Origin: Naegleria gruberi | Lineage: Eukaryota | Length of the DNA: 64,000 nt | Strand: one strand, 5' to 3' | NCBI GenBank assembly: GCA_000004985.1 | Contig: GG738845.1 | Part shown: positions 4,208 through 53,448 of the stretch, one piece after another | Position numbering within the stretch: the first letter of the stretch is position 1 | How the letters are laid out: the number at the start of each line of letters is the position of its first letter | The notes under the pieces: model-generated | Told to the model about the DNA's origin: nothing | Database searches by the model: none | What the model saw: only the letters and a program-made list of their open reading frames with translations | Translations under genes and position numbers: made by a program

Positions 4208-4255
4208 ATCAGGGGCTAATACAAACGAATTTGGCGCCATTTCAAAAACAAAAAA

Positions 4256-5098
4256 ATGCTCAATCCGAATGATATTGAGGAACATTCCACTAGACCACTT
4301 TCTTCATCAATATTTTCTCCACTTTCCCCTACAAAGATGAGTATGAGAAAAAGTAAGAAAATAGGAAATCTTCTTAGACCAGGAACTGCAGCCAGTACTT
4401 TTTATCAAGTTTTAAACCAACCACAAACGGATCAAACCCTTCTCGGAAATTCTTCATCAAATAATATTCAAACAAATGGAAAAGGGACTTTCCTAGCTCC
4501 ACAAGATGAAAATCGTATGTTATTGACTCATCTCATTATTTAGATCTTTATAGTTATTGAAATTAATTCCGATCTCCCCCTTGCAATACTAATATATTTC
4601 CACAGCTTTTATTCGACAGCATGGTTATTGGTGACATTAGTATTACACATTTTGAAGCATAATTTTAATACAATTTCAACAACAGATACTGCTATTTTCT
4701 CTGTTATAATTGTTGTTTGGACAGTAATTGAATTTCCAAGATTATTGATTGGCTATTCAGGAAATTTGAAAGAGAAAGTGCCTAGAGTTTTTGCATTCAT
4801 GATTCTTTCCACTATTCAACCATTATTGTATATTTATTTCATTGTTTATCAACCTGTTGTATCTCCATTAGACTACATTATTTGTAGTATTCAGTTGCTT
4901 TTCTACATTTTGGAATATATTTTCGGAATCAGTTCTCTCAGAAATTTCACAAGAGTTAGCGGGATTAGATACAAATTGTACTTTAACAAGGATGGTACAC
5001 TAGCCCTTGATGAGGAGGAAGATGTCGAAAACAAAAATTTCGTGGAACCTTTTAATATCAATACTGAAGGTGATTTTAGTGATCATTCAGAAAACTGA
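4256..5098 (+). CDS. Hypothetical 3-TM membrane protein, two exons (4256-4514, 4620-5098)
   Basis: Exon 1 is Ser-rich (MLNPNDIEEHSTRPLSS...APQDENR). A GTATGT donor lies at 4515 and a cgacAG acceptor at 4618-4619. The join keeps frame (…ENR-P-WLLVTLVLHIL…). Exon 2 encodes three hydrophobic helices and an acidic tail. The intron is 105 nt, longer than typical here. Confidence 0.45.
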
Positions 5099-5165
5099 GT
5101 CAAATCCACCAACCATTCGTATTGTAAATCGGAAAAAAGAAGTCATCAAAAAAAATACCATCACA

Positions 5166-8100
5166 ATGTCAAACAATTTTACCAACGATAAACTTATACA
5201 CAATTTAGAGTATAATTTATCTGATTTATCTGACTTGAACAAATTACAATCTATATTAGAAATTTACTATTCTGGTAGTCTTTATGTCCATGGATCAAAC
5301 AACAGTCAACAACAAATTAATATTGAAACCATGCTTCAACATTATTTTGGTTCCGATAGAGATTGTTGGAAAAAAGGTATTTTACTTTTAGCTAATAGCA
5401 GTGGAAATTCTACAATGCAACACGTTCAATGGTTTGCATTAACTCTTTTAGAGGAGAGTGTGCATCATGTTGCTTATTGGCAGAATGAAATGAAGGATGA
5501 GGAGAGACAACAAGTGGAAAATGTACTTATGGTTAATGTTCTACCAAATTATAGGGTAGGTTAATATTTTAGTATGGTCTATTTATCATAATCATCAAAA
5601 AAAATATCAGCTTTATCCTGCTTCTATTTGGAGAAAGGCTTGTAAAGTTGTTGTGGAAATTGTAAAAATGGAATGGCCACAAAGATGGCCAAACTTTTTA
5701 AATCAAGTTTTTCAAATTGGAAACAATTCTGATACAGTAGTTGTTGCTCTTACTATTTTACAAATGTTATCTGAAGAAATTTCAAGTATGAGTGGAGAGA
5801 ATACCAGAGATAAAGATGATATTCCAGAAGATAGAAAAGAGGTTCTTTATCAATCTATGCTTTCTATTGTAGATGAATTGTTAACTTTTCTTTTAGGAAT
5901 TTTAACATCACTTCATGATGGTTATTTTGCCACATTATTTTCAAAGATACAATCCCAACAAAATATTGATGAAACAAGTTTCAAAGGATTTTGTGAAATT
6001 GTTACTTTCTCTCTTGATTGTTTGAATCATGTACTATCATGGGTTAGTCCTATTGAGCGATATCTTCTTTCACACTCAAATCTTTTCCCTTGCATTGTGA
6101 ATTATGTTAAAGTGTATTTCAATTTAATTTATTGCACTTCAGGAAATGGTATGTTCTTATTTTGGTTATGGTTTTATAAAATTTCATTAAAGAGTCAATC
6201 AAGGAAAGAATAGACGATCCAATGTACTCCATAACAACAAAGGCTTTGAGCTGTTTTAGTGAAGTTATTTCCAAATCAATCAAAACAACACAAGTAGATG
6301 ATAACTATGCTAGATCGCTTGGTATTTTAATGAATAACATGTATTCAGCTATGCTTGACCTTTTATCAACTTACAGTGGTATTTTTAATTTCGAGAATGG
6401 TATGTTTACAATATTTATATTATTAAACCATTTCAGAGAATACAAAATTGAAATTAATAGAATTATTTTCAGAAGGAGAACGTGAGGAACTTATTGTAAA
6501 ACTGCATTTAATGGTACAAGGATTCAGTGAATACCATTTGGGAAGAATATTTCTTGCTATGCATAATGATGATTTAGGTCATGGGTTGAATAAGCTTCAG
6601 TTAAACTTTGATATCAATGCATTTTTGGAACGTTTTTATAGATTTACAACTCTTCAATTCACTACTGATGATTATCAGACAGCAGTGGCAACTTGGCTCA
6701 CTATTATAGATACAGTTACAAACTCGTTTGAAGACGTTAGTGATACAAGTTTCTATCAAACCTACCACAATTGTATTAAACTCTTAATTAGAGATGTTAT
6801 AGGAAGAATTCAATTCAGAGAAATTAAGAAATATTTTTCTAATTCCCTCAAAGTTAATATTGAAAAAATTGATATCAAATATTTGGAAGATTTGGATGAT
6901 ACCAAAAAAGATAGCCAAAATTGCACTGATTTTTATAATCATTTAGATGTTTGTGTTGAATTAATAGGGGCTAGTATTGAAACCTTTAGAGATGAATTAG
7001 AAGTTGTAATGGAAAATTTCGAAAAAACTATTACAGATTTCAATTCTGTATTCAATAACCTTCTTCCTTCTTGCATTCAATCTCAAACACTTCCGGATAG
7101 GAAAACCTGGGATATTGTCACTATGATATTTAAAGATTTGAGAACTTTGATTTTTATCCTTACAAGATTATCAAACACATTCGTTTATGATTTTGAGAGC
7201 AAATTTAATATTACTGCCAATCTATTTACCAAAATTTTAGCTATACAAAATACTGGAATCAGAACAATATTTGATAACAATAGTCAATATGCTATGATAA
7301 TTCAAAAATTAGATCCATCACCTCATTCTATTGGGTTATATAGGTTAACAGAAGAAACTTTTTCATTCCTTCAACAATACATTAGATGGATTTTCCTCTT
7401 TGGTACAAATATTAGTGCCAAAATTGTTGAGCAAGTGGAAAAGAGTGGTTCAACCTCTGATGAATTATTACAAATGCAAACTAATTATATCTCTTTAGTG
7501 ACTAGTATCTGTGATAATATTGTGCAATGTCTATTAATAAGTAGTAATAGCGCAAGTTTTACATTACCATTCGATTTGACTGCTTCTTCTACCAGTCTTT
7601 TATTATTACTGTCTTCCTCACTTACTAATTTAAGTTTGAAACAACCAACAGCTACAAATCTTAATGGAATGGCCTATAAGCATTTTCTTTCTACCACTAT
7701 TGAAGAATTACCTTCATTTCAATCCCTAATTCTACCAAATTTGAATCAAATGATTTCTTCTATTGCATCCAAATATCCTCCAATTTTAGAGAATGCTGAA
7801 TTTATTCTTTCTAAAATATTTGTATCCATTTCTACCAGTATTTTAAGCAAAGTTAAAATAGCACCTTCTGTTTATCCTAATATGANNNNNNNNNNNNNNN
7901 NNNNNNNNNNNNNNNNNNNNNNNNNNNNNNNNNNNNNNNNNNNNNNNNNNNNNNNNNNNNNNNNNNNNNNNNNNNNNNNNNNNNNNNNNNNNNNNNNNNN
8001 NNNNNNNNNNNNNNNNNNNNNNNNNNNNNNNNNNNNNNNNNNNNNNNNNNNNNNNNNNNNNNNNNNNNNNNNNNNNNNNNNNNNNNNNNNNNNNNNNNNN

Positions 8101-9166
8101 NNNNNNNNNNNNNNNNNNNNNNNNNNNNNNNNNNNNNNNNNNNNNNNNNNNNNNNNNNNNNNNNNNNNNNNNNNNNNNNNNNNNNNNNNNNNNNNNNNNN
8201 NNNNNNNNNNNNNNNNNNNNNNNNNNNNNNNNNNNNNNNNNNNNNNNNNNNNNNNNNNNNNNNNNNNNNNNNNNNNNNNNNNNNNNCATGGAACTTATCA
8301 CAGGATCCATGCCTATCTTTATCAAAGACAATCATGGAAGAACAGTTTTAATACAATTACTCAAACTTTTAAAGGCTGTAGTATCTGATGGAAGTGGAAA
8401 GCTTTCCAGTACCATACCTAAAATAATTCATACTTGCAAAAATATTATTTATCCAGAGTTGAAGAGTATTGGGGAAGGTAAAACAATTGGAAATACTTCC
8501 TCAATTGAGGTTCTTCCATATTATTATGACTTATTGTATTGTATTTTAAATTATAACATGAAATATTTCTTCATATCTAATATTGTGAATGGAGTTATTC
8601 AAGAACAACAATGTACAAGTATTGAAACTTTAGATCAATTCTGTTTCATAATGGAATGTTTTTTGAATTCATTTTACTCAACAGATATTTCTATTTTTAA
8701 GAAAAATTTATCTTTGTTAGAGGATTTGAATGATAGGAACAAACTTTATGAAAGATTAGCTTTCAGACAAGTCTTGCCTGCTTTTGGTAATAATTCAATG
8801 ATGAATTGTTTTGCTACAATTTTTATTAATATTTTAATAGCCAAAAGTCACAACCTTTACAAGTCAGAATTAATAACATCACTTTATAATATGGTTAATG
8901 CTGGAAATTGGGAAAATTTTTCAGTTTTCATCCAACAATTTTTGAGCAGCGATAACAAGTTAGTGCAAAAGTTGAGTAATGACCAAAAACAACAATTACT
9001 TATTCGTCTGCTAGCTAAACCAAATCATATTGAGGATTCTGAATGGAGAAGAAGAGAAAGCTTTGCAAAAAGAGTATCCCAATTCACAAACGATATTTCT
9101 TACAGTGTAAAGCAAAACACACATTCTAACCTATCCTTCCTTGTTTTAAATTATATTAATAAATAA
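5166..9166 (+). CDS. XPO5: Exportin-5-like karyopherin; exons 5166-5555, 5611-6148, 6193-6399, 6437-7885 (runs into N gap), 8287-9166
   Basis: Exon 2 contains SIWRKACKVVVEIVKMEWPQRWPNFL, matching the exportin-5 motif ...IVVEMIKREWPQHWPDML. The splice sites are GTAGGT/AG (55 nt), GTATGT/AG (44 nt) and GTATGT/AG (37 nt), all frame-consistent. A 401-N gap interrupts the large exon. The C-terminal block is a long helical-repeat ORF. Confidence 0.7.
7886..8286. other. Assembly gap (401 N) inside the exportin-5-like gene
   Basis: A run of n characters. The true length and reading frame across it are unknown. Confidence 1.
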
Positions 9167-11708: not shown

Positions 11709-12332
11709 TTAAATCATATTAGTATGTTTCTTGGTTGAACTAGTTGGTTGATTGGTTTTTTCCAAAATTGTTGAACCAGATTCAATTTTTTGGGAAACTT
11801 CGTTAACACTTTCCTCTGGTAATTTCTTTCTTAGTTCTGAAATTTCTTCTTTAGCTTGGACTAATTGATCCTCACTATCCAATAATAATTCCTTCACCAT
11901 TTCATAGTACATGACATCTCTTTGACGAGCAATTATCACAATTATCAAACAAATGATAAGTGCAGCATTAATAAAATGAAGTGGTCCTTTGACGGCAGAG
12001 TCCTTTGTAGCTCCTTGTTTCACATATTTTTCCAATAAATCTTCCAATTGATTTACATCTTGTGTTGTGAATGCTTTTTTCTCTGATAAATGTTGAAGTA
12101 TTTCCCTACTATTTTTTAATTTGGATGAAATTTCATCTTGTTGTGATTCGGAATCAGCGGCAAGTGCAGCTTCTTGTTGTTGTTTGAATTCCGCAGCAGT
12201 TTGTGCAGGTCTATTATTTCTTGGAGTATTTAGAATATTATTGGCGCCTCCTCCTAATGCTCTCAGGTTAGTCGAGAACTTTCTTGTATTAACTAAATGA
12301 GAGAGAATGGAACGACTATTCAGCCTGAGCAT
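11709..12332 (-). CDS. Hypothetical mitochondrial-targeted single-pass membrane protein with a coiled-coil
   Basis: 207 aa. The N-terminus MLRLNSRSILSHLVNTRKFSTNLRA looks like a presequence. There is one TM helix (AALIICLIIVIIA) and a C-terminal coiled-coil. Confidence 0.5.
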   Translation of the reverse strand: MLRLNSRSILSHLVNTRKFSTNLRALGGGANNILNTPRNNRPAQTAAEFKQQQEAALAADSESQQDEISSKLKNSREILQHLSEKKAFTTQDVNQLEDLLEKYVKQGATKDSAVKGPLHFINAALIICLIIVIIARQRDVMYYEMVKELLLDSEDQLVQAKEEISELRKKLPEESVNEVSQKIESGSTILEKTNQPTSSTKKHTNMI

Positions 12333-12383: not shown

Positions 12384-12395
12384 CTTCGCGCCAAC
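12384..12395. promoter_or_regulatory. E2F-like GC box (CTTCGCGCCAAC) in an 89-nt divergent promoter
   Basis: TTCGCGCCAA sits between the divergent ATGs at 12332 (-) and 12422 (+). It is one of several recurring TTTSGCGCC/GGCGGGAAA elements and stands out in a roughly 75% AT background. Confidence 0.35.
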
Positions 12396-12421: not shown

Positions 12422-13774
12422 ATGGAGTTTGCTTCACCCTCATCTGTTCACAACACAAACTACCCTGTTCAGAGAAGAAATTCTAACTCTGAACAATTTT
12501 TGACTCCCTATTCGGCCAATGAACCTCTGTACTTAGATGATGACAATGAAATTTGTTCTCCACAAATCCCGATCTCAACTGCAAAAACATTTTCTAAATC
12601 TGATAATTCTCTTGGTACTGATCTTCTCCCAAGTAATATGTCGTACGAAGTGGTTTGGAGAGAGGAAAAAATAAGGTTGCTTGAACAAGAGAGAAACTCC
12701 GCCCTATTAAAAATTGAGGAATTTGCTAAACAAAACCTTATTCTAAGAGAGGAGTTGAAAAAGAATCAGAAAAACACAAGCAATCCAACTAATGAGATCA
12801 ACCAATTAAAACATGAAAGAAATTCCATACAAGAATATGCTGAACAAATCCGCCAACAAAAGAACTTTCTTCAAGAACAACTAAATACGATAAAGCATGG
12901 CCAGGGAAATGTTGAAAGAGATTTAGAAAAAAAGGATATTCAAATTAGAAACCAAGAAAACCAAATAAGAGAATTATCTCACCAACTAGTTTCCCTCCAA
13001 AAGCAATGTGAGCAACTAATCTCAGAGAGAGAGAAAATGAAGAGTGATCTTATTGAGGCTCAAACCAATTTACATATCAAATCAGCTGAGCTAGAGGAAC
13101 TCAATGGAGTTCAAGAAGAATTGTTAAAGGCTATGAGCGAAGAAAAAAAGAAAACAACAGAACTGTTAAAACAGCAGAACTCTGAAAATGTTTCACGAGA
13201 GAAAATGAAAAAAGAAAATGAAAGATTGGAACTGTTGGTTGACAAGTTACAATCTGACTTTAAAAGGGAGCAACAAGAAAATTTTAATCAAAGATTAAAA
13301 TTTAATACAACACTCGAAGATACACAGATGAAAATGCAGGAAGAAATTGATAGGCTCACTAACAGTCTTTCCCAACTCAAGAGAGAAACAGAAGAAAAAG
13401 AAATACAACTAAAAAACCAAATTCATTCTCAGCAACACAAGATTGGTACATTGACAGATCAATTAAGAGAACAAATGGACAGGTATGAAAAGAATTTATC
13501 GTTATTAAAAACTGAAGAATCAGAAGAAAAGAACAAACACAACCAACAAGTCTCAAAATTTAAGAAGGAATTATCATCAAGCATTGAAATGATAAAACTG
13601 TTAAAGGAAGCAAACAAAAATTTGGAAGACAACTTTGTACAACATCAAAAAATAATATCTGCTTTAGAAGACCGTTTGAAAAAAGAAAAAGAAGAAAAGG
13701 AGGAATTGGCAGAAAATCTTGACATTCTAAAAAACAAATTACCTAAAATGCTTGCTTTGATTGCAGAAGACTGA
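12422..13774 (+). CDS. Coiled-coil protein (hypothetical)
   Basis: 450 aa from a true ATG, with a long heptad-rich E/K/Q/L region. Confidence 0.55.
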   Translation: MEFASPSSVHNTNYPVQRRNSNSEQFLTPYSANEPLYLDDDNEICSPQIPISTAKTFSKSDNSLGTDLLPSNMSYEVVWREEKIRLLEQERNSALLKIEEFAKQNLILREELKKNQKNTSNPTNEINQLKHERNSIQEYAEQIRQQKNFLQEQLNTIKHGQGNVERDLEKKDIQIRNQENQIRELSHQLVSLQKQCEQLISEREKMKSDLIEAQTNLHIKSAELEELNGVQEELLKAMSEEKKKTTELLKQQNSENVSREKMKKENERLELLVDKLQSDFKREQQENFNQRLKFNTTLEDTQMKMQEEIDRLTNSLSQLKRETEEKEIQLKNQIHSQQHKIGTLTDQLREQMDRYEKNLSLLKTEESEEKNKHNQQVSKFKKELSSSIEMIKLLKEANKNLEDNFVQHQKIISALEDRLKKEKEEKEELAENLDILKNKLPKMLALIAED

Positions 13775-13838
13775 AAATCAAACAAAAATTTAAAAATAAA
13801 TTTGTATTAAAGAACTCCCGCTTTACCAATACAAAAAA

Positions 13839-16800: not shown

Positions 16801-18651
16801 ACCTATAGAAACTACAGGCAAGAGAGATTGAAAAATGCTAGTGAAATTGGATTAGAAATGCAAATGGGAACTCGTGTTGCAACAAATGTACCAACCAATA
16901 TCTATGATCACACAATAGCTAATGCTGCCACATTACAAAAAGGACCCCAAGATACAATTAATTATATCACCATGGCTAAAAACACTCAAGAGCAGGGAAT
17001 GCCAGATGTAAGTACTAACTTTGCATTCTTAATTATTTAATTTCAACAGAGATTGCTCTCATTCGTTGCTATTAACTTTGATGGAGATATTCAAAGAACA
17101 AAATCTGTGGAAGGTCCATTCCCTCAATTCAATCAAACCCTATCAATACCTCTAAAAACTGTAAATAATGACTATAGCCCAGAATCACTGAAATTAATTG
17201 ATAAGGAAATTTACTTTGATGTTTTTGATGAAATAACCGTTGAAGGCCTAAGAGACGAAAGAGATTACAATACCATAAATCAAAGAGCTGAATTTAAGTG
17301 GTTAGGCTCTTACTCAGTACCATTCTCTACTCTGTACCAAAACGGAAAAATAATTGGTACCTTTAGACTTAAAACACCTCCTCTCTATCTGGGCTATGGA
17401 AAATCTGTTAATGATCAGAACGCTTACACAGCCTTAACCGTCTGTATTACACTGGATCCTCCTTTGCCAAGACCAGAGAAAGTTGAAGATTTCATAATTA
17501 CTGGAGAGGGACCTGAAGTGTATTCTTACTGTCAGTGGTGGTCTAAAGTTGTGAGAAAGTCCAAATATGCAAAAACCAGGAATGTGAAATGTCTTGTTCC
17601 AAATATTGAAGGAAAGGCAACTTTACTTACAAGGTACATTACTCCACAAGACCCTCCTCCTGAATTACAGACAGCTTCTGAACTAGCAAGATTTGTATCC
17701 CTCATTCCTCTTTTAAACGATTCATTAACGTTTGACGCAGGAGATATTTGGATTGGATCCCAAGAGTTTTTAGATACAAGGGCTGGTGATTGGGAAGAAC
17801 ATTCAATTCTTCTGTGCAACTATTTCCTTAGTTTGGGTAAAACAACTTTCTTTGTTCTTGGAAAAGGTGTCCCAGAAGGAGATACTGCATATGTTCTTAC
17901 AGTTGAAACCAGCGCAACAATTACACATAACAATAACCATTCGTATCAGGAAAATAGAAAGTGTTTATTGTTGTGGAACTCAGTAACCGGAGAGAAATAT
18001 TCAGTAGATGATCCTCTTTGTCCCCTTCAAGAAATACACTTAATTGCATCCCAAACAAATATTTGGATTAATGTGCAAAAACATGCCCAGCCATCCATGA
18101 TGAAATTTGATCTTAATGATATTTCACTATTTTATCCTCTATATAACCCAACAAGAGATTCTAACAGGATGATTGCTAAAGAATGTTGCGATCAAAAAGG
18201 AAAGATTCAATATAAGAAACTACTATACAATAAGTGCTCTCCAAATAATAGCATAAGACTAGAACAAGATATTAGACGAGCAATTGAGGAAGGATTTTCT
18301 TTATGGAGACACAAAGCTACGATATGGGACAACTCTGTTAGCAAAACATTTAAAGAGCTTTTACAAAGTTTCGAAGCAAGCAAAAAGCTAGACCAAGCAC
18401 TAAGTGATGAAAACCAACAACAAGTTTTGGCCATTGTAAATGAATCAAGTGCAGTGAATGGTTTTCCCCTTAATTTTTGTTTCAAGGATATTGAGGAAAT
18501 TGTTACAGAAGTACGAAACACCATGGTATACGATACATATGAGCCGGATGTAAAGTTTGCACTAGCTGTGTATGTAGAGCCATATGCTAATGATATTTGT
18601 AGTGTGTGGGTTTACGTTGCATCAATTATCAACAAGAGAGGGTATTATTAA
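13839..18651 (+). CDS. Large K/E-rich coiled-coil + C2-domain protein, CC2D2A-like (ciliary transition-zone type); exons 13839-15578, 15616-16550, 16593-17007, 17050-18651
   Basis: Three introns join four ORF blocks in frame: GTAAGT...AG (37 nt), GTAAGT...AG (42 nt) and GTAAGT...AG (42 nt). The protein is about 1580 aa: a charged coiled-coil N-terminal half, a C2-like beta-sandwich segment (…YFDVFDEITVEGLRD…FKWLGSYSVPFSTLYQNGKIIGTFRLKTPP…), then a large C-terminal domain. Overall size and architecture match CC2D2A/MKS6. The identification is from memory. Confidence 0.55.
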
Positions 18652-29847: not shown

Positions 29848-32800
29848 CTAATTATCAACGCTTACAAGTTTAAATAAATCAGAAAGGTTTACCATTTGTC
29901 TGGCGTTTCTTTGTAGGTATTTGGAAACATGTTTGTAGATTTTGCCAAGCTCGTCTATTTCTTGTTTTTGCATTTCTTGTACAACAGCTTTCAATTTTTC
30001 TAATGAAGAATATTGTTCCTTGTCTATTTTCTTGAAAGTTGCTTTTACACAGGAAGACCAATCAAACATACGAGCTAAATATCTCAATCTAACCTGCAGA
30101 TCTTGAGGAGTAAAGGTTTGTTTGACAGATACAACAGATCCATTAAAAACGCCATAACCCCCAGGTTGCATAGATATAACATGAGTCGATGAATCCGAGA
30201 TGTTGGCTCTATAGTTACTAGCAGAAGGCTTTAACTCATTTGAGTAATATTTCTTGATGAGTTCTCTAATATTTAGTTGTGAAAGATTGACAATTTTGTT
30301 TGTGGACATTCTAGATTTGCAATGAGGACAATCAAGAATGGTAATACTCTGCATCATGTCTGTATCTGTTGTGCTAATAGCATTCGTCAAAGTTGAAACA
30401 AGGTCAAGGTTTACCTTGTTCGAACAGTGATCACAAGTAAAGTTGACAGGTAGTTCAATACCTTCAAATTCATCGTATTCTTCCTGCCTAGAGAGTATTT
30501 TATACTCTTCCATGTTATCATCGTCACCATAGCTAGTTCTGAAATATTTCTTCTCTAGTCCCAAGCATTCGGCTATCAGAGCTTTGTCTGTTTGTTGTAA
30601 ATATTCACACAAACGAGAAACTGGAGGGAATACTTGTTGAGCAAGATACCATTCATAATCAAGTTCCAAATTATTATCTTTTTGCTCTGCTCTGAAGGTA
30701 TCTGGATGAACAGCTCTTTCAGAAACTTTGGAGGAAGAAGTACCATCCTTTCTTAAGGTGATAACGAAGGGAATACGTTGATGCAGTCTAACAGCTTGAC
30801 CATTTCTTCTCATTTCTAAAGCAACCTGAACATGAGGATGATTAATGGCATCTGTATATTGTTCAGGTTCTTTTGTGAGTGCTGTTGTGAGAATATATTG
30901 TTCAAGTGGAACTCTATTATTTCTTACATCGTCAGCAATTTCTCTAAGGTGGGTATGGATGTTAGCAACTATTTCTTCTGGTGTTGGTTGTGTTTGGCAG
31001 TCTACAGGTTCATTTGGTCTTAATATTTGATCAATAATGTATTGAGAAACGTTTCTAGAAAGATCACACCAATCTCTTCTGACCATATCAAGGCCTTTAA
31101 GTTCAAGTTTTGGGATAATTGTGCCTTGCTTATTTTTAGTATGAATTAGGGCACCATATTTCTTCTTTCTAAGGAGTAACATTCTTCTAAATAAACCATC
31201 AATATCAATTTCCAATTTTCCTTTACCTTTTCTAAAGGAATTGTTAATTTCCTTTTTGATTTCCTCACCCTTAGATAGAGCCTCATCATAGTTTGTAGTG
31301 TCGGTGGCAATCATAACAGAGTCAGTATCACCATAGATAACGCTGAATCTCAAACTATTCTCAATTAATTGTTTAGTTTGAGTCAAAATGTTTCTTCCTT
31401 CTACTGTAATTGATTCTGCCATTTGCTTGCAAAAAAATCTACTAAAAGTAAAACCTAAACAACCATAGGTAGAGTTTGCTGTCAATTTCAAAGCACGTTG
31501 ACGCATGTCATATTGCCATCTTTGTACACCAGTTGCTTGTTCCATTTGTCTTTGAGCTTGTCTTCTTCTTGAAAGTAGTGTTTCAATAACTAGAGGCAAT
31601 ACGGTTTTATCATTCTTGTGTTCCTCTCTCTCTTCTTCAGTGTATAAAAAATTAGAGAAACAAATATTATTTTCCAAAATGATAGATGGGTAAAGAGAGT
31701 TGAAATCCAAAAGAAGTACATAATTGTGATGAAAACCTGATTTAGGATCTAAAACTAAACCACCAGAATATTTTGGTTTTCTGCCACCACGTTTTCCAAA
31801 AGCACGTGATTTGTCTGGCAAAATATATTTTTGTTTGTAGAACTCATGAAGCAATAGATACTCAATACGTTCACTTCTAGATCCAATGAGAGTTCTATTC
31901 CATAAATTACCTGCTGCATTTGTAAGTTCCTTGGTAAGAGGGATTAAACTTAATTTTTCCATCAAATCCATTGACACTTGTGCATCATGTTCTACAAAGG
32001 CACAGAATTTTTCTACACCCTCAACACTTGAAAAATATTTTGCTGTCAGAATCAGATTACCATCATAAAGAGGATTACGAATATCCTTCTCGAGAGGAGT
32101 TTCTCCCAATTGAGAAACTCTTAAATCTTCAAGAGAATATGACTTTTCTCTTAAGTACTCCTTAACAGCGATATATGTATCACATACTAATCTACCAGCA
32201 AGAGACTCTTTTTCAGATTTGGTAGACTCATTCATACCTCCTGGCAATGGTTGAAGCATAGGATATCGACTTAATCTCAATCTGCCAACACGAGACCACA
32301 AAACTCCATCTGTTCCCTTAAGAGCTTTCCAACGTTGCAATATAATATCAAGTTCAAAACTAAGGAAGCTGTGTCCAATATACATATCTGGGTCGTACTG
32401 TTGAATTTGAGCCATCAAACGATTAATGAGGGATGTTTCATTAAATTCTAGTTCTATTCCATTAGAGTCAACTGAATTGTCATCAACTTTTCTGGCAACA
32501 ATGAACTTCTTTCGTTGACTTTGCTGACCGGTAAAAGAATACTCTTGAAGTATGCAACAAACAGCAACTATTTCGTTAACTTTCTTTTCTTCGTTGTGGA
32601 TAGTTTTAACTTTCAATGACATTAAAACCAATGGAGGTGGTGATCTATCATCATTGATAACAGAAATATTTGTTGGTTCATCTGTACTAACTTCAAATTT
32701 ACACCAACTCAATTGACCGGATGATTTGACATGGAATTTTTGAATAGAAAGCCATGAAGGTCCCATCAACTTTCTTTTCAAAATAAATTCTTCCAATCCA

Positions 32801-33468
32801 CTAGTAGTTGCGTGGAAAACCTTGCTGAATAACTTAGAACCTCTAAACTCTTGTAAATGTGGTTTTAAATTCTTAACATCAAATATAACAACTTTAACCA
32901 TGGTAATGCTCTTGTTGTATGGTACATCAGCATCCTCAAATATGTATTTTCTTTCCTTGAATTTAAAACCAAATTTCTCTGGTGAAATTTTCAATACTTC
33001 AGATAATTCTTCTTGTATTCTTGATTCTTGTTCTTGATTGACAAGTTTTGCCTCTATTGGCTCACGAGGAAGAAAATAGATAGTTTTTTGTACTTTTTCA
33101 AGTCTGACACAGCAACTGGCGTAATTATTTGGAAGGGTTTCGATTTTACCAAACAAAATAATTCTACCATCAAGTTCACAAGAATCAACAAAATAAAAAT
33201 CCAGTTTGCTCTTTCCTTCTAAAGAAAATCCCACTGTCTGATTCTTGATGAATTGGTCCTGTTGTTCGATGAAGGGAATTTTGCTTTTAAAATCATCAGG
33301 AAGTATTGAAATTTCTTTCACATCACCCGATTTTGTACTACTAAATAATTTATGTCTCTTTTGTTGAGGGGAGGCTGATATTTCATCCTCATCGCTCATG
33401 GCAGAGGTGTTTACATCAAAATCTTCCTCTTGCTCACTGTCACTTTCTTCGTGTGAACGTCTTTTCAT
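29848..33468 (-). CDS. POLA1: DNA polymerase alpha catalytic subunit (family B), N-terminally reduced (1206 aa)
   Basis: DFNSLYPSII (motif A), YGDTDS (motif C), KLTANSTYGCLGF, a C-terminal zinc module CDHCSNK...CPHCKS, and FYFVDSCELDGRIILFGKIE...CCVRLEKVQKTIYFLPRE aligning to Pol-alpha N-terminal-domain landmarks. Single exon. Confidence 0.9.
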   Translation of the reverse strand: MKRRSHEESDSEQEEDFDVNTSAMSDEDEISASPQQKRHKLFSSTKSGDVKEISILPDDFKSKIPFIEQQDQFIKNQTVGFSLEGKSKLDFYFVDSCELDGRIILFGKIETLPNNYASCCVRLEKVQKTIYFLPREPIEAKLVNQEQESRIQEELSEVLKISPEKFGFKFKERKYIFEDADVPYNKSITMVKVVIFDVKNLKPHLQEFRGSKLFSKVFHATTSGLEEFILKRKLMGPSWLSIQKFHVKSSGQLSWCKFEVSTDEPTNISVINDDRSPPPLVLMSLKVKTIHNEEKKVNEIVAVCCILQEYSFTGQQSQRKKFIVARKVDDNSVDSNGIELEFNETSLINRLMAQIQQYDPDMYIGHSFLSFELDIILQRWKALKGTDGVLWSRVGRLRLSRYPMLQPLPGGMNESTKSEKESLAGRLVCDTYIAVKEYLREKSYSLEDLRVSQLGETPLEKDIRNPLYDGNLILTAKYFSSVEGVEKFCAFVEHDAQVSMDLMEKLSLIPLTKELTNAAGNLWNRTLIGSRSERIEYLLLHEFYKQKYILPDKSRAFGKRGGRKPKYSGGLVLDPKSGFHHNYVLLLDFNSLYPSIILENNICFSNFLYTEEEREEHKNDKTVLPLVIETLLSRRRQAQRQMEQATGVQRWQYDMRQRALKLTANSTYGCLGFTFSRFFCKQMAESITVEGRNILTQTKQLIENSLRFSVIYGDTDSVMIATDTTNYDEALSKGEEIKKEINNSFRKGKGKLEIDIDGLFRRMLLLRKKKYGALIHTKNKQGTIIPKLELKGLDMVRRDWCDLSRNVSQYIIDQILRPNEPVDCQTQPTPEEIVANIHTHLREIADDVRNNRVPLEQYILTTALTKEPEQYTDAINHPHVQVALEMRRNGQAVRLHQRIPFVITLRKDGTSSSKVSERAVHPDTFRAEQKDNNLELDYEWYLAQQVFPPVSRLCEYLQQTDKALIAECLGLEKKYFRTSYGDDDNMEEYKILSRQEEYDEFEGIELPVNFTCDHCSNKVNLDLVSTLTNAISTTDTDMMQSITILDCPHCKSRMSTNKIVNLSQLNIRELIKKYYSNELKPSASNYRANISDSSTHVISMQPGGYGVFNGSVVSVKQTFTPQDLQVRLRYLARMFDWSSCVKATFKKIDKEQYSSLEKLKAVVQEMQKQEIDELGKIYKHVSKYLQRNARQMVNLSDLFKLVSVDN

Positions 33469-33493: not shown

Positions 33494-33523
33494 TGTGGCG
33501 GGAAAAATGTGGCGCCAAGTTTG
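33494..33523 (-). promoter_or_regulatory. Tandem E2F-like sites upstream of DNA pol alpha (reads CTTGGCGCCACATTTTTCCCGCCAC on the gene strand)
   Basis: TTTCCCGCC and TTGGCGCC lie 26-55 nt upstream of the Pol-alpha ATG (33468). They fit the E2F consensus TTTSSCGC. Pol alpha is a classic E2F target in animals and plants. Confidence 0.45.
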
Positions 33524-36797: not shown

Positions 36798-37264
36798 TTA
36801 CTTTAGAAACAGTGTTACAAAATGCAAAGGATTATTTAGATCTCTCCAATCAGAATTTACAAAATTAAAAGTGGAAACAAGACAGTGACTGGTTTTAAGG
36901 ACTGTTGAATATTCAATCCAAATTGGGATTGATTTGAAAGCAGAACCGCCACCTCCTTTTGCTTCAGGTTCCTTGTTGAACAATTTCACTATATCAACAT
37001 TTGTACTTGTAATAGAAANNNNNNNNNNNNNNNNNNNNNNNNNNNNNNNNNNNNNNNNNNNNNNNNNNAATTGTTTTAAAATCCGACTTTGTCATGAAAG
37101 ATATCCAAGCAAATAATAATTCCAATATTCACAATCAGAAAATTTTTTCACTTCACAGTTTCGAGAAAGAGGATCACTGTTTAGGGATTCTATGAATTTT
37201 GCAAAGGTGGGATCGGAAGTTTTTGTTGGTGTGGTTAGAATATCTGTTAGTTGCATTTTTTTGG
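36798..37264 (-). CDS. Possible small hypothetical protein spanning the 50-N gap
   Basis: Minus [57 protein letters not shown] (37264-37100) and, on the far side of the gap, ...[32 protein letters not shown]...* (to 36798). Whether they are linked is unknown. Confidence 0.2.
37019..37068. other. Assembly gap (50 N)
   Basis: A run of n characters. Confidence 1.
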
Positions 37265-42374: not shown

Positions 42375-42376
42375 AG

Positions 42377-44427: not shown

Positions 44428-44444
44428 TTTGTGCGCCCGCCAAT
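44428..44444. promoter_or_regulatory. GC box TTTGTGCGCCCGCCAAT (E2F-like core plus CCAAT) in a divergent promoter
   Basis: It lies between the ATGs at 44230 (-) and 44499 (+). It is the only GC-only 9-mer in a 268-nt, roughly 80% AT spacer. Confidence 0.3.
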
Positions 44445-44498: not shown

Positions 44499-46760
44499 AT
44501 GGCTGCAGTGATTCCGTTAAGATCCGGTTATGAATTCCTCCAAGATACATCATCAAAATTGGTGGACGAAGGAATGACCAAAGTAGTTGTTGCCATGTTG
44601 ATGAATCACATCTTACCACAACTCTATGTTAGTCAATTATCCAAATTCGAAACATTTTCTGTTCCTTCACCTCTTTCTATTGAGGGAGAAGAGAACAATG
44701 ATCACTTTTTACTATTTGAAAAAGAAGCATCAACAAGTGGCAACAATTGCTCCAAGTGCCGTTATTTTGAAAACCTTGCCTTTTCTTCTTCATTCAACAA
44801 GTATTGCCAAGTAAATTGTACAAATTGCGACTGTTGTAATAACTCCAAAGAATTAACTCTTGATTCTCCTACAAACAATTACAACTTTGATTCTTATCAT
44901 CAACCCATCATGGTTCTTCCAACCTCAAATAATAATCATTCAAGCAATGAAACAAATACTGGTAATTCTCAATATGTTAGAGATTACCTTCTCAACTCAT
45001 TATTTCAATCAGATTTGCATACTGGCAACTCTCTTTCCAACATGCAACAACAAACTCAAAATGACAAGAACTATTTCCTTTCGAATGAAGGTTCCACTAT
45101 TCAAGAACCAAAAAATATGGTTTTTCCAGATATAAATAGAAAAAACCAAAACGAAAAAAAATCAATGACAATACTACCACAAACAACCCAAACTTTATAT
45201 CAAAACTCATTCATAGAAACTATTAATAATACTCACTCAAGTGAAGAGGAAGATGCATCATCCAGTAGCTGTTTGAGCAATTCTTCTGCCTTTTCGAATC
45301 AATCTTTTAATGTTAAACGAGAGAGTTTCATCTCAAATGAAAGGTCATGGAAGGTTGCTTTTGAATCGGAGGAGTATAAAGGATTATTAAGAAATACATC
45401 ATTCAAAATCAAGACAAGAACTGACGATATTGAAGTAAACATTTCCTCTCAACTGTACTCCAGTTTAAAGTATCAGTTTAACATTTCAACATTTATTAAT
45501 AAGAAAAGAGCCACCGAATTGGCAATTAATCAAAAAAGTTATGGAGGTATCATAATAGCCACAGTAGAATCGCTTATTGTTAAAAATGAAGAGGATGACG
45601 ATACAGACGAAGAAACTTTGAAGAAGGACGAAATATGCCAAGATGTTTTGAAAGGTGAGTCAGAATTAGCACTACAACCTATAGAATCAATAGAAGCTAC
45701 TGAATCAAAAGCTTTCAAACCATTCCTTCAACAATTAAGAAGAGAAATAAGTAAAGAGGACAATGATTGTGATGAAAGGGAATGGATATGCCTATTAAAT
45801 AAGACTAAGATGCAATTTTCTGATCAATCACAACACAATAAGAAAAATTCCTACGTTATGAGAGTTAGTTTTTATCTCAACAAGGAATTTAAGGAAAGAA
45901 AACCAATAATTATTTTCGATAGTGCTCCTTTCAAAATATATGCAAGAAGAAGCAAGAAATTGGACGAATCAGAAGAACCTAGAAAGAGAAAGAGGAAAAT
46001 CAAAAGCAAAACAACCTCAAAGAAACAAAAAAGTAATGATATTTCTCTTTTATCAAAATTTGAATCGGAATTGGGAGAATTGGTTCAATTCATTGGTGAA
46101 ATGACAAATTCAACTGAAAGAAATAGAGCAGTACAAGCTTTTATCACCAATCTAGTTTCACTAGAAAGTATCCAAGATAGAGCAGAGCCCATAGCCCCAA
46201 TACATATAGATACATCTTTTGGAAGGCAACCAGGAACTGCAGCAAAACTATTGAATGAGAGGATTCCAGAACTGAATCCTTATCCATTTTTTGATAGTAC
46301 TTTCTATGGAAATTATTCAAATAGAGAAGAAAATTCATTAGAATCATCAATATCCAAGGATATGCTGCTTTCTATTGGTCAATCTAGTGTTCTAGATAGC
46401 CCACATACACCTGATCTAATGAAAGGAAGTGAATCAAAACCACATCAAAATCACCCTCCAAGAATTTTACAATTATTGAACCAACCAAGTAGTAGACTAG
46501 ATTTAAGTAAGGTGAAAAATATTGGTTCAATGAATCCTTCAATGCTAAATAAGTATTTGCAAGATGATGTACAAACTCCAACATTAATGAACTCACAACA
46601 ATCCAATAACTTGATCGGAATGGAAAATAGTTTAGATATATTTGATGTAAGCCCTTTACCTATTCAAGGAAATATCAGTAATAGTTTACCAAACGAAACA
46701 AATGCATTCGATCAGTTACTATTCGATATTCACAGAACCCAACCCAAGAAAGAGAAATAA
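44499..46760 (+). CDS. Hypothetical Ser/Asn-rich protein (753 aa)
   Basis: Single ORF from a true ATG. Cys-rich patch CSKCRYF...CQVNCTNCDCCNN near the N-terminus. No domain recognised. Confidence 0.55.
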   Translation: MAAVIPLRSGYEFLQDTSSKLVDEGMTKVVVAMLMNHILPQLYVSQLSKFETFSVPSPLSIEGEENNDHFLLFEKEASTSGNNCSKCRYFENLAFSSSFNKYCQVNCTNCDCCNNSKELTLDSPTNNYNFDSYHQPIMVLPTSNNNHSSNETNTGNSQYVRDYLLNSLFQSDLHTGNSLSNMQQQTQNDKNYFLSNEGSTIQEPKNMVFPDINRKNQNEKKSMTILPQTTQTLYQNSFIETINNTHSSEEEDASSSSCLSNSSAFSNQSFNVKRESFISNERSWKVAFESEEYKGLLRNTSFKIKTRTDDIEVNISSQLYSSLKYQFNISTFINKKRATELAINQKSYGGIIIATVESLIVKNEEDDDTDEETLKKDEICQDVLKGESELALQPIESIEATESKAFKPFLQQLRREISKEDNDCDEREWICLLNKTKMQFSDQSQHNKKNSYVMRVSFYLNKEFKERKPIIIFDSAPFKIYARRSKKLDESEEPRKRKRKIKSKTTSKKQKSNDISLLSKFESELGELVQFIGEMTNSTERNRAVQAFITNLVSLESIQDRAEPIAPIHIDTSFGRQPGTAAKLLNERIPELNPYPFFDSTFYGNYSNREENSLESSISKDMLLSIGQSSVLDSPHTPDLMKGSESKPHQNHPPRILQLLNQPSSRLDLSKVKNIGSMNPSMLNKYLQDDVQTPTLMNSQQSNNLIGMENSLDIFDVSPLPIQGNISNSLPNETNAFDQLLFDIHRTQPKKEK

Positions 46761-47257: not shown

Positions 47258-47834
47258 ATGTTTAAAATTGTGGATGGTAGACTTTTGGTGGACATTAAAT
47301 TATATTCGGAACATATTATTCAAGATTTAATATTATATTTTTCGTATGAGAGAATTTTAATCGGATTTATTCTGTTATTTATTTCATATTATATTATCAA
47401 AAAGATTGTAAAGAGAAGAACACTTGTTGGCAAATGTTGGAATTGTGGAGAAACATTTTATTTAACAAAAAGACAAGTGAATTTGGGATGGAAATGTCCA
47501 ACGAGGAATTGTCACTCTTTTAATAGTGGTCCTTCTTCTAATTCACAATCCTTANNNNNNNNNNNNNNNNNNNNNNNNNNNNNNNNNNNNNNNNNNNNNN
47601 NNNNTTTCTATTTATTCCTTCTTTTTGATGAACTTGTTACATATTATACTATTATTGATTGGTGGTGAAAAGTGTAAAAGTTTATTTAGAATGTCAATAG
47701 AACAAGCTGAATTCAAACTCTATATTACACAATTAGTATTCTTATTGGCAACAATTTTTGGATGTACAATATGTGGTCACAGTATTGGATTTTGTGTATG
47801 TATTCAACTTGTTGATTTTTACTCAAATTTATAA
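47258..47834 (+). CDS. Small TM + CxxC protein interrupted by a gap (hypothetical)
   Basis: MFKIVDGRLL..., a TM helix, then CWNCGETFY...CPTRNC, then a 50-N gap, then ...ICGHSIGFCVC...*. Frame continuity across the gap is unknown. Confidence 0.3.
47555..47604. other. Assembly gap (50 N)
   Basis: A run of n characters. Confidence 1.
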
Positions 47835-51891: not shown

Positions 51892-53376
51892 TTATTCTTC
51901 ATCGTTATCTTGTGGTTCGTCCTTCTTTGGAGGGATAAACTTTTTCATGTCTTCTATTGTTGGATCTAATTGTTGGCATAATTTCACTTCTTCATATTCG
52001 TTCAATATTGGAAGTAAGAACTGTGGAGAGAATGCGCCACCCTTATAACCGTAACCAATGTAAACATTGGAAAATACCATATCTTTCGAGTTCCTCTTGT
52101 AACCAACCGTAAAGGCACCATTCCATAATCTATTTGAAAGACAAATAACCTCATTATCAAGACTTTGATGTGATGATCTTATTGTCCAATTTTCTTTTGA
52201 AATTGAGGATAATGGTTTAGGTATTCTTTCAACTGTTTTCTTCAATTGATCAAAGTCTGGGTTTTCTTTTTCCTCAGAAGTCCAGAAGAATGAACATCTT
52301 CCTTGTTTTCTTAGTATCGGTGGAAGAAGGTTAACCCAACTGTTATGTTTAGAAATATCTAGCTTTGCCAATTGCTCTTCAAATTCAGTATTTTGTTCAA
52401 TAGCAGCAAGGGTTTCATTTGCAATAGTTAAATTAGGTGGAAGATTCAATTCTGGATCTACCTCGTCTTCATCTGCGCTAAGCTTCATTCTTCCCAATGG
52501 AGCTAGGATGCAAGAGTGAGAGATTCTTGCAATCTGACATCTCAATAGTTCCATTTCTGTGCCTTTGAATGGAGGGTGTGACAAAACTTGTTGGTCCAAT
52601 CTTCCAGTAAAAAACTTTTTGATTTTTCTGCTTCTGTTAATGCTCTCTGGGTTTGAATCTGGAAGTCTTGTCCAAGTATCAGCATTTCCGCCAACATTAT
52701 TTGATACATAGTAAATGTATTTGTTTGTTCCATCAGTTTCGGGTGGAATTCCATTTTCCTTTTTTTCATTTTCATCATTGTCTTGTTCTGGTTCATCAGT
52801 CTTCTTAGTTTGTTCTGTCTCTAGTATGTAATAATTTTTCTCTATTCCCAGTATTTTGCCAAAGAAACGAATGGAATCTATGTCATTGTTTGATGAAACA
52901 ACTGATTTCATTGAAACCAATAACCGGATGAGTTCCATTTCTCCAATTCCAATACCTACATCCCTGAATAATTTTCCTTCATAGAGAATATCAGACATTT
53001 TGAGTGTATCCAATCCTTCCTCCCCTTCTTCTGTGTTGTCTACATCTTCATCTGTTTTTTTCTTTGGCTTTATTGGTGGATTTATAAGGGCAAGGTATTG
53101 TTCGGATCTCTTGAAATCCTTTTCCAAAATATTTTCATCATCTACTCCCATCCATGGTTTGTACAGTTTTGTTAAACGTTCAAAGGCTGATCTTTCCTTT
53201 GCAGGAACGAAGCTTCCTTCCTTTACTAAATTACAAAATTGTTCAATTTTAGAGAATGGATTTTTAGGCTTTTCTTGAAGTAATCTGAAAATTACTTCTG
53301 AAAAGAAATCCTCAATCGTAATTTTTTCCTTTTCCTCACCAAGATCCGTACATTTAACCTTTGATACAAAAGACAT
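51892..53376 (-). CDS. Radial spoke head protein 4/6-like (RSP4/RSP6/RSPH4A family)
   Basis: The N-terminal ...ITIEDFFSEVIFRLLQEKPKNPFSKIEQFCNLVK matches the remembered RSP4/6 N-terminal pattern (LYDHLVEVLLKIL.ENPKDA...FEQFS..VK). Its size (494 aa) and acidic C-terminus fit. Assignment from memory. Confidence 0.45.
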   Translation of the reverse strand: MSFVSKVKCTDLGEEKEKITIEDFFSEVIFRLLQEKPKNPFSKIEQFCNLVKEGSFVPAKERSAFERLTKLYKPWMGVDDENILEKDFKRSEQYLALINPPIKPKKKTDEDVDNTEEGEEGLDTLKMSDILYEGKLFRDVGIGIGEMELIRLLVSMKSVVSSNNDIDSIRFFGKILGIEKNYYILETEQTKKTDEPEQDNDENEKKENGIPPETDGTNKYIYYVSNNVGGNADTWTRLPDSNPESINRSRKIKKFFTGRLDQQVLSHPPFKGTEMELLRCQIARISHSCILAPLGRMKLSADEDEVDPELNLPPNLTIANETLAAIEQNTEFEEQLAKLDISKHNSWVNLLPPILRKQGRCSFFWTSEEKENPDFDQLKKTVERIPKPLSSISKENWTIRSSHQSLDNEVICLSNRLWNGAFTVGYKRNSKDMVFSNVYIGYGYKGGAFSPQFLLPILNEYEEVKLCQQLDPTIEDMKKFIPPKKDEPQDNDEE

Positions 53377-53408
53377 TTTTTTTGTTGTTTACTGATGAAT
53401 ATGTACAA

Positions 53409-53448
53409 TTTTGGCGGGAAAAAATCGTTTATCCAATTACCGCCAAAT
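53409..53448. promoter_or_regulatory. E2F-like sites TTTTGGCGGGAAAAAA and (reverse) ATTTGGCGGTA in a 116-nt divergent promoter
   Basis: They lie between the ATG at 53376 (-) and the ATG at 53493 (+). TTTGGCGGGAAA is a canonical E2F element. Confidence 0.35.

Follow-up and report, generated by a model that had tools for sequence, protein, structure and literature searches.

Probable E2F-type promoter elements of Naegleria gruberi at DNA polymerase alpha and at cilium-related genes

Canonical sites of the E2F/DP-RB system in animals and plants (TTTSSCGC) combine a [C/G]GCGC[G/C] or GGCGGG core with T/A flanks, as in the Arabidopsis motif TTTCCCGCC (PMC3734150). In Cryptosporidium parvum, the E2F-like upstream motifs TGGCGCCA/DTTGSCGCCH and TTTGGCGGGAAV have been attributed to E2F/DP; no other motif is as abundant in the upstream regions of this species, 163 of 200 expression clusters show it over-represented, and no RB is found (PMC3734150). 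In multiciliated cells of animals, the E2F4/5-DP-Multicilin/GEMC1 programme (reviewed in PMC12183034) ties an E2F-family factor to the building of basal bodies and cilia after cell-cycle exit. Its targets in animals are chiefly genes for centriole biogenesis and regulators; structural cilia genes are under RFX and FOXJ1. Atypical E2F7/8 (DEL) proteins, which are RB-independent repressors in animals and plants, recognize the site TTCCCGCCAAAA, as in the E2F8-DNA structure 4YO2.

The window, the whole 64-kb stretch of DNA that was analysed, is nuclear DNA of Naegleria gruberi NEG-M. Its AT content is 67.5% overall and 70% in non-ORF DNA, lower than the 75-80% background assumed in the original prediction, and CpG is depleted (observed/expected 0.36-0.45). 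The five motif clusters quoted in that prediction were all recovered in place, the third and the second half of the fifth having been written as minus-strand letters. The quoted distances to start codons (13 nt between 4242 and the ATG at 4256; 26-55 nt for DNA polymerase alpha) are correct, and the list contained essentially all strong sites, to which we add one weak variant, CTCCCGCTTT, at 13815-13824 on the plus strand.

Within 10.9 kb of non-ORF DNA, TTTSSCGC was observed 3 times (0.25 expected), TTSSCGC 5 times (0.56 expected), and TGGCGSS 6 times (0.26 expected). Each of these counts was reached in 0/1000 dinucleotide-preserving shuffles, which puts the recurrence well outside chance expectation. 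The motif density there is 6- to 25-fold above that of ORFs. An unbiased k-mer scan of the non-ORF DNA returned GGCGCCA as the most enriched 7-mer (4 vs 0.04, p 1e-7) and placed the 6-mers GCGCCA, CCGCCA, and CGCCAA all within the top nine. All strong SSCGS cores located in true spacer DNA precede a start codon, with site-to-ATG distances of 14-62 nt in the window and up to ~110 nt among orthologs. The sites comprise a 6-bp CG core and a T/A flank, and are strongly biased in orientation, the prevailing sense-strand form being SSCGCCA(A/C)A. They are present in 5-6 of the ~33 spacer/promoter regions of the window and in 9-10/85 control promoters over all loci; ~10-15% of promoters carry one.

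The gene for the DNA polymerase alpha catalytic subunit (29848..33468, minus strand; exact match to XP_002683378; Pfam DNA_pol_B, DNA_pol_B_exo1, and zf-DNA_Pol) has a site cluster at 33494-33523, reading TGTGGCGGGAAAAATGTGGCGCCAAGTTTG on the plus strand, 26-55 nt upstream of its ATG at 33468. This cluster contains a tandem pair of E2F-type sites on the minus strand, one proximal (33497..33507; GGCGGGAAAAA, sense strand TTTTTCCCGCC; ~29 nt from the ATG) and one distal (33510..33519; TGGCGCCAAG, sense strand CTTGGCGCCA; ~43 nt from the ATG). The pair is kept near the ATG in 4/4 species examined, where the flanking DNA otherwise does not align: TTGGCGCCA + TTTTTCCCGCC in N. gruberi, GCCGCCAAAA + AGCGCCAAC in N. 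fowleri, CCCGCCAAAAA + TTTGGCGCCAC in Willaertia magna, at a locus of only 24% GC, and CTTGGCGCCC + ACCGCCAAAT in ENA contig L002 of an uncultured relative, where the near-perfect E2F form TTTTGGCGCGAAA occurs. Pol alpha is a classical E2F target, the human and Drosophila genes included, and the tandem pairs of the other three species support the E2F-type placement first proposed for the N. gruberi gene. A further replication/chromatin gene, W. magna SSRP1/POB3 (FACT complex), has TTTTTTTGGCGCCATT 29 nt upstream of the ATG.

The radial spoke head protein gene RSP4/6 (NAEGRDRAFT_44954; 51892..53376, minus strand; exact match, Pfam Radial_spoke E = 3e-82) has a site at 53409..53424 on the minus strand (TTTTGGCGGGAAAAAA; RSP4/6 sense strand TTTTTTCCCGCCAAAA), 32 nt upstream of the ATG at 53376. 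The RSP4/6 promoters of five genomes keep a site 22-66 nt upstream of the ATG, namely CCCGCCAAAA in N. gruberi and N. fowleri, GCCGCCAAAA in W. magna, TTTTTGGCGCC in ENA contig L005, and GGCGCCAAC in GCA_016850925. In N. fowleri and W. magna the next gene upstream runs in the same direction, which assigns the site to RSP4/6. A TMEM17-like gene (4256..5098, plus strand; ORF pieces 4256-4543 and 4628-5098; Pfam Transmemb_17 E = 3.7e-20), whose exon 1 is conserved in loci L007 and L008 (tblastn), is preceded by TTTGGCGCCATTT at 4230..4242, which has a palindromic GGCGCC core and ends 13 nt before the ATG. The ortholog promoter in ENA contig L008 reads ATTTGGCGCCAAC + GAAGGCGCCTTG, and that in N. 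lovaniensis (L007) has a weaker match, TTTAGCGCGGTAA, which fails the strict pattern; the site is thus kept in 2/3 species by the strict pattern, with a weaker match in the third. The weak variant CTCCCGCTTT (core TCCCGC) lies 14 nt upstream of the ATG at 13839 of a predicted CC2D2A/MKS6-like gene (ORFs 13839-18651; CC2D2AN-C2 plus CEP76 peptidase/C-terminal domains). The link to cilia consists of the two genes with conserved sites and this one weak variant seen in N. gruberi. Apart from Pol alpha, the site-bearing genes had been described as unrelated, but they are not a random set: the membrane protein is TMEM17, of a ciliary transition-zone family, and RSP4/6 is axonemal.

The remaining sites adjoin genes at 12422, 44499, 53493, and 11709 that have no recognisable function. 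An 89-nt divergent spacer contains CTTCGCGCCAAC (12384..12395; reverse complement GTTGGCGCGAAG), 30 nt upstream of a plus-strand gene for a 450-aa coiled-coil protein (12422..13774, by translation) and 56 nt upstream of the start, at 12332, of a minus-strand gene for a 207-aa protein (11709..12332), the N-terminus of which resembles a mitochondrial presequence and for which no Pfam family matched. The latter is one possible client; the coiled-coil gene is the likelier one, and the sense-strand reading for it, CGCGCCAAC, has the orientation found elsewhere. At 44428..44444 (plus strand), TTTGTGCGCCCGCCAAT carries the sense-strand core CCCGCCAA 55 nt upstream of the ATG at 44499; its likely client is the gene for the 753-aa predicted protein NAEGRDRAFT_44951 (44499..46760, plus strand), and a divergent Utp12-like gene lies ~200 nt away. 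The site TACCGCCAAAT (53438..53448, plus strand) is sense-oriented for a predicted multi-exon coiled-coil gene (53493..55909, plus strand) divergent from RSP4/6, with the ATG at 53493 located 44 nt downstream.

Conservation was assessed in ortholog promoters from N. fowleri, N. lovaniensis, W. magna, and uncultured relatives, the data comprising the one 64-kb window and ~140 kb of orthologous loci, a small sample. Sites were found in 7/8 orthologous target promoters and in 5-6/56 controls (Fisher p ~1e-5), with the ortholog set picked from genes in which the motif had already been seen. They are retained though the surrounding promoter DNA of the orthologs is unalignable.

The E2F and DP genes to be expected of such a system are both present: N. 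gruberi encodes a single copy each of E2F, DP, DEL, and RB (NgruE2F, NgruDP, NgruDEL, and NgruRB; Medina 2016 supplements, PMC4862756). Their domains were confirmed with the Pfam models E2F_TDP, E2F_CC-MB, and DP. The DNA-binding domain of NgruE2F matches that of human E2F4 (PDB 1CF7) with E = 7e-25, and its RRIYD recognition helix is unchanged. Among solved structures, NgruE2F is closest to E2F4/5, with 4YO2 also among the matches, whereas NgruDEL has two DNA-binding domains and is E2F7/8-like.

The proposed match to the E2F/DP consensus holds, with the core and T/A flanks described in PMC3734150, and the motif forms agree with DTTGSCGCCH and TTTGGCGGGAAV of C. parvum and TTTCCCGCC of Arabidopsis. 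Judged from sequence, the boxes are probably E2F-family cis-elements bound by the single E2F with DP and/or by the two-domain DEL. As in the canonical system, the sites are promoter-proximal and form a tandem pair at a replication gene, the organism has E2F, DP, and RB, and the recognition helix is identical. The differences from the canonical system are the heterolobosean (Discoba) host, whose spacers measure tens of nucleotides, the marked sense orientation of the sites, and their conservation at flagellar structural genes as well. C. parvum likewise has an AT-rich compact protist genome, with the same two motif forms over-represented in short upstream regions, but in Naegleria the motif marks only ~10-15% of promoters and RB is present. 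The likeness to the multiciliated-cell programme lies in an E2F closest to E2F4/5 in an organism that forms basal bodies de novo during differentiation; in contrast to that programme, the Naegleria sites adjoin the structural genes themselves, those of the radial spoke head and the transition zone. RFX and FOXJ1 are absent from Naegleria (PMC12183034, PMC10530576). The commonest Naegleria form, (T)TCCCGCCAAAA, also matches the atypical E2F7/8 site, and N. gruberi encodes a two-domain DEL; by sequence alone, DEL and E2F/DP are not separable. DEL as the reader would give a regulatory logic other than that of E2F/DP.

The elements could be real and conserved yet read by another, possibly lineage-specific protein (CGCCAA/CGCCAT), such as a YY1-like C2H2 zinc finger or an AP2/ERF-like GCC-box binder, the E2F likeness being convergent. 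What varies least is (T)TGGCG / CGCCA(A/C), not the palindrome as a whole, and the strong sense-strand bias is, to our knowledge, not typical of animal E2F sites. Some sites read CGCCATT or GCCGCC; because GGCGCCATTT and GCCGCCATT are also compatible with a YY1-like CGCCAT core and GCCGCC is similar to a plant GCC-box, a different factor is possible for some of them. Nevertheless, the sites include the two classical E2F forms (T/A-flanked GGCGCC and TTTGGCGGGAAA), TTTTGGCGCGAAA of L002 and TTTTGGCGGGAAAAAA of the window are near-perfect, the organism has E2F, DP, and DEL with the recognition helix unchanged, and the presence of the motif at Pol alpha and SSRP1 fits the replication/chromatin class. 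We consider this explanation unlikely, though the most serious competitor of an E2F-family reader.

The original prediction offered as a fallback a general core-promoter element, which would substitute for TATA or Inr at most Naegleria genes. The tiny spacers, the orientation bias, and the closeness to start codons (14-62 nt) would suit such a role; however, a site on only ~10-15% of promoters does not fit a general element. The strict site is absent from every spacer of the N. lovaniensis locus L007 (13 genes), and none occurs at the window housekeeping genes for acyl-CoA dehydrogenase, arginase, P-type ATPase, desaturase, and Fcf1. We regard the fallback as very improbable. Slightly less probable still is a role after or outside initiation, as a 5'UTR signal for translation or stability, a target of CpG methylation/TET, or a marker of replication origins. 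The TMEM17 site is close enough to its ATG to be transcribed, the window is CpG-depleted, and N. gruberi has a TET-type enzyme, but ATG distances that range from 14 to ~110 nt between orthologs fit a DNA element over a fixed mRNA signal, and palindromic cores and sites common to divergent pairs better fit DNA recognition. Short motifs do recur randomly and the pattern was chosen after the sequence had been viewed, but chance, composition, or a dispersed-repeat remnant is ruled out by the shuffles, which fail to reach the counts even for the a priori consensus, by the rank of the motif in the unbiased scan, and by its conservation across four or five species at orthologous promoters, the unaligned flanks making a repeat family unlikely.

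With E2F-family elements as the preferred reading, the sites in the short promoters of a minority of genes would be read by E2F/DP and/or DEL. By analogy with animals and plants, the Pol alpha tandem pair would most likely tie transcription of the gene to the onset of S phase by way of E2F/DP and the RB homolog. Growing amoebae are expected to express Pol alpha, and differentiating cells that do not divide are expected to express flagellar genes; a single simple activator would not account for the two patterns. The element conserved at RSP4/6 and TMEM17, with its weak variant at CC2D2A, suggests that the E2F network may also control part of the cilium programme, either keeping cilium genes repressed while the amoebae are cycling or turning them on when cells leave the cycle, during the amoeba-to-flagellate switch. 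E2F-type elements are themselves of a known kind, and sites at Pol alpha are expected; those at flagellar genes are unexpected, and the possible link to cilia is a new lead.

The window is compact, with ATG-initiated ORFs of at least 90 codons covering 83% of its length and intergenic spacers often spanning just 20–250 nt. Its GC content is 32.5% overall and 30% in non-ORF DNA, and the background of 75–80% AT assumed in the original prediction was thus too high. CpG is strongly depleted across the window (observed/expected 0.36 in ORFs and 0.45 outside; GpC near 0.8–0.9), which makes boxes with a CG core stand out more. The gene map was built from the ATG-ORF map and Pfam annotation of the whole window, with predicted multi-exon models for TMEM17, CC2D2A, and the gene at 53493. 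Three window proteins are exact matches to Naegleria gruberi NEG-M entries. The DNA polymerase alpha catalytic subunit (29848–33468, minus strand) matches XP_002683378 exactly, and the radial spoke head protein RSP4/6 (51892–53376, minus strand) was assigned by an exact match to NAEGRDRAFT_44954 and by Pfam. Three runs of N mark assembly gaps (7886–8286, 37019–37068, and 47555–47604), the first of which breaks an exportin-like multi-exon gene.

E2F sites are defined by a 6-bp CG core, [C/G]GCGC[G/C] or GGCGGG, between T-rich and A-rich flanks, TTTSSCGC (PMC3734150). Each of the motif strings originally quoted was found at its position, two having been given on the minus strand, and all five clusters (4230–4242, 12384–12395, 33494–33523, 44428–44444, and 53409–53448) fit the E2F/DP consensus, as had been proposed. 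A full listing of SSCGS cores outside ORFs returned these clusters and one weak extra core at 13817; two further non-ORF cores, at 4959 and 36946, probably lie in an unannotated exon or 3' sequence. For the true spacer sites in the window, the nearest downstream ATG is 14–62 nt away. Compared with 1000 shuffled versions of the non-ORF segments that kept their dinucleotide composition, we observed three copies of TTTSSCGC (0.25 expected), five of TTSSCGC (0.56 expected), and six of TGGCGSS (0.26 expected), and 0/1000 shuffles reached the observed count of any of the three patterns. The expected enrichment over a composition-matched background was therefore borne out in the window's non-ORF DNA, the a priori consensus lying 10- to 20-fold above the shuffles, and the site density outside ORFs was 6–25 times that within them. 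GC-only hexamers as a class showed no enrichment in non-ORF DNA (6 observed versus 5.1 expected), indicating that the signal is specific to CG-containing E2F-like words rather than to general GC-richness. An unbiased 6-/7-mer scan of the same DNA placed GGCGCCA first among 7-mers (4 versus 0.04, p 1e-7, surviving correction for 4023 words), with GCGCCA second, CCGCCA seventh, and CGCCAA ninth among 6-mers. Other over-represented non-ORF words were TGTGGA/TCCACA (17 versus 4.9), AGTGTA/TACACT (16 versus 4.8), AATACAA, and CAACAA runs, some of which may come from unannotated exons.

Both classical E2F forms occur, namely the GGCGCC palindrome with T/A flanks and TTTGGCGGGAAA; the same two forms have been described in Cryptosporidium parvum, and the second in Arabidopsis (PMC3734150). 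Read on the sense strand in gene orientation, the sites are mostly SSCGCCA(A/C)A, as in CCCGCCAAAA, GCCGCCAAAA, GGCGCCACA, AGCGCCAAC, and ACCGCCAAAT. This orientation was found in eight of the nine non-palindromic cores at Pol alpha and RSP4/6, and the divergent RSP4/6 spacer holds a separate sense-oriented copy for each of its two genes. Some of the sites may be read by a different factor, one that recognises CGCCA(A/T).

In the bipartite CDE/CHR cell-cycle element, the CHR, TTTGAA, is set 4 nt after a GGCGG-like CDE. A scan for TTTCAA (the reverse CHR orientation) within 14 nt found it after 3 of 39 SSCGCC cores versus about 0.5 expected (p ~0.014), a marginal, post hoc result. In these cases TTTCAA(A) lies 1–5 nt after a GGCGCC-type site, and it also follows one AGCGCC core in N. 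fowleri (window 4233–4249 and, in relatives' loci, L006 14648–14667, L008 91–107, and L001 9973–9992), where it could be an initiator-like or a reversed CHR-like partner.

A protein search with Pol alpha recovered three orthologs, with 78% identity in N. fowleri, 74% in an ENA metagenome contig, and 61% in Willaertia magna. Together with that of N. gruberi, this gives four promoters, each with two E2F-like sites near the ATG in DNA that otherwise does not align: CTTGGCGCCA and TTTTTCCCGCC in N. gruberi, GCCGCCAAAA and AGCGCCAAC in N. fowleri, CCCGCCAAAAA and TTTGGCGCCAC in W. magna, whose locus is just 24% GC, and CTTGGCGCCC and ACCGCCAAAT in the ENA contig. In the ENA gene call, the start was set about 66 nt upstream of where it should be (L002, the Pol alpha contig, 2857–2925); the resulting ORF extension covers both sites, and ATGAAGCGA, which matches the other species, was found downstream of them. 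The retention of the tandem pair in four species supports the proposed conserved E2F-type code at Pol alpha. Both replication/S-phase genes covered by the analysis carry a site, namely Pol alpha in the four species and W. magna SSRP1/POB3, a replication- and chromatin-linked FACT subunit that is one of the site-positive "control" promoters described below. The Pol alpha proteins of Naegleria and Willaertia (29848–33468 and orthologs P0004–P0006) are short, at 1206–1239 aa, and lack PF12254, the N-terminal Pfam domain with which most other eukaryotic matches are annotated. The W. magna locus (L003) also contains the E2F-like sequences TTTTTGGCGCTAT and TTTTCCCGCCAATTTT, 34 nt apart, within a continuous 496-codon ORF (6984–7027), a pair that could reflect either a promoter within the gene or an erroneous gene call. 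Two sequences that resemble each other, TGTGGCGG(T/A)T(A/G)TTTTTCA, at L003 14086 and 20452 in large unannotated spacers may be parts of uncalled genes or of a repeat.

At RSP4/6, the site was found as AAAACCCGCCAAAAA 66 nt upstream of the ATG in N. fowleri, TTTTTGGCGCCGG 47 nt upstream in an ENA contig, GCCGCCAAAA 27 nt upstream in W. magna, and GGCGCCAAC about 22 nt before the true ATG of a more distant RSP4/6 (35% identity) in assembly GCA_016850925. In both N. fowleri and W. magna, the next gene upstream points the same way as RSP4/6, across spacers of just 75 and 62 nt, and the site there therefore belongs to RSP4/6 rather than to a divergent partner. The TMEM17 promoter of an ENA relative carries GAAGGCGCCTTG and ATTTGGCGCCAAC 80–105 nt upstream of the ATG, and that of N. 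lovaniensis only the weaker TTTAGCGCGGTAA, about 75 nt upstream. Of the three ciliary genes examined, RSP4/6 thus retains the site in five organisms and TMEM17 in two, a third TMEM17 promoter having a weaker match.

In the loci outside the window, which served as an independent test, a strict site was present in 7 of 8 target promoters and in 5–6 of 56 other promoters (Fisher p ~1e-5), the sample being small and the ortholog set picked from genes already bearing the motif. With the window added, the counts were 10/11 and 9–10/85; the GCA_016850925 contig, fetched after the test, is left out of both comparisons. Selection appears to have kept the site in promoters whose flanks have diverged too far to be aligned. 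The fallback originally offered, a general core-promoter element, is ruled out by the occurrence of the site in only about one promoter in ten (~10–15%), and its distance from the ATG is not fixed, ranging from 14 to ~110 nt.

Judged by Pfam annotation of the whole window, the genes with a site are not a chance assortment. Those earlier described as unrelated include RSP4/6 and a member of the TMEM17 ciliary transition-zone family (4256–5098, predicted multi-exon model), which has a site upstream. The site-bearing genes without a recognisable family encode a 450-aa coiled-coil protein (12422–13774), a 753-aa protein (44499), and a coiled-coil protein (53493, predicted model); the divergent neighbour of the 12422 gene, a 207-aa protein with a presequence-like N-terminus and likewise no recognisable family, is a possible further client. 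The unnamed site-adjacent proteins are mostly coiled-coil or low-complexity. A PDB sequence search with 12422, 33676, 42377, and 44499 and permissive Pfam on all six unnamed site-adjacent genes gave nothing usable between them, the matches being one coiled-coil match at chance level and sub-threshold Ten1_2/YEATS and Utp12 matches. About 14 annotated window genes of other classes have no site, including those for arginase, acyl-CoA dehydrogenase, an exportin-like protein, Spt20, NIF phosphatase, a desaturase, DSP phosphatase, an RBR ligase, SET, Fcf1, a kinase, a P-type ATPase, and PIP5K.

Three cilium genes are recognisable in the 64-kb window: the TMEM17-like gene, RSP4/6, and a CC2D2A/MKS6-like gene (13839–18651, predicted multi-exon model) with CC2D2AN-C2 and CEP76-type peptidase/C-terminal domains. 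An E2F-like core precedes the ATG of each by 14–32 nt, that of CC2D2A being the weak variant CTCCCGCTTT (13815–13824), 14 nt before the gene. A single long CC2D2A gene (12422–18651) was rejected; the 64-nt gap at 13775–13838 contains no GT-AG intron and ends in an A-rich start context, which makes 12422–13774 a separate coiled-coil gene. In W. magna, the called gene at L003 6349–7839 has another copy of the decamer CTCCCGCTTT in the spacer about 194 nt upstream (L003 8031–8040), and this decamer may represent a weaker variant class of the E2F-type element.

N. gruberi has one E2F, one DP, one DEL (an E2F7/8-like protein with two DNA-binding domains), and one RB (Medina et al. 2016 supplements, PMC4862756). 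The anticipated E2F/DP genes thus exist, and Pfam confirmed the domains of the sequences, with E2F_TDP scoring 1e-28 and 2e-18 and both E2F_CC-MB and DP also matched. The NgruE2F DNA-binding domain aligns with human E2F4 of the E2F4–DP2–DNA structure (1CF7) at E = 7e-25, including an identical 22-residue stretch, and the winged-helix domain of the E2F/DP proteins is intact. The C-terminus of the E2F reads GEGVSDLF, which we take to resemble the RB-binding motif of animal E2Fs. The best-supported reading of the boxes is that they are E2F-family binding sites, given the sequence match, enrichment, position, orientation bias, and conservation observed and the presence of the factors. Binding at these predicted sites, its regulatory sign, and the involvement of RB are what we infer from the sequences.

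The putative sites at Pol alpha form a textbook E2F arrangement, now in a heterolobosean. That flagellar structural genes share this conserved box is unexpected. Cycling amoebae should express Pol alpha and non-dividing, differentiating cells the flagellar genes, and with such opposite timing a single activator model would not fit both. At cilia genes, the element could recruit a repressive E2F/DP–RB or DEL complex during growth; alternatively, an activating complex would be recruited on cell-cycle exit. According to reviews, Naegleria lacks RFX and FOXJ1, and the regulators of its cilia genes are not known (PMC12183034, PMC10530576). As a possible functional analogue of the RFX X-box, the element of a cilia-gene regulon, the E2F-type box was seen here at the three cilium genes examined, at CC2D2A only as a weak variant.

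That E2F/DP/RB proteins exist in Naegleria was already known; our literature search returned no report of E2F target sites in any heterolobosean, nor of Naegleria promoter motifs or E2F sites. With E2F sites conserved at Pol alpha even in so deep-branching a lineage, there would be further evidence that the E2F S-phase cis-code dates from the last eukaryotic common ancestor. The conserved box 22–66 nt upstream of RSP4/6, also present upstream of TMEM17, is a concrete candidate for flagellar-gene induction and a moderately interesting lead towards possible E2F control of flagellar genes. We advance only tentatively, as a rather doubtful proposal, that in Naegleria and its relatives, without RFX/FOXJ1, E2F/DP(/DEL)–RB controls much of the flagellar/basal-body set in addition to S-phase genes. 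If so, the E2F-type box would be the cis-code for rapid, coordinated flagellar-gene induction in the amoeba-to-flagellate switch, and the E2F–cilia link of animal multiciliated cells would represent an ancient coupling of cell-cycle transcription to centriole/cilium assembly.
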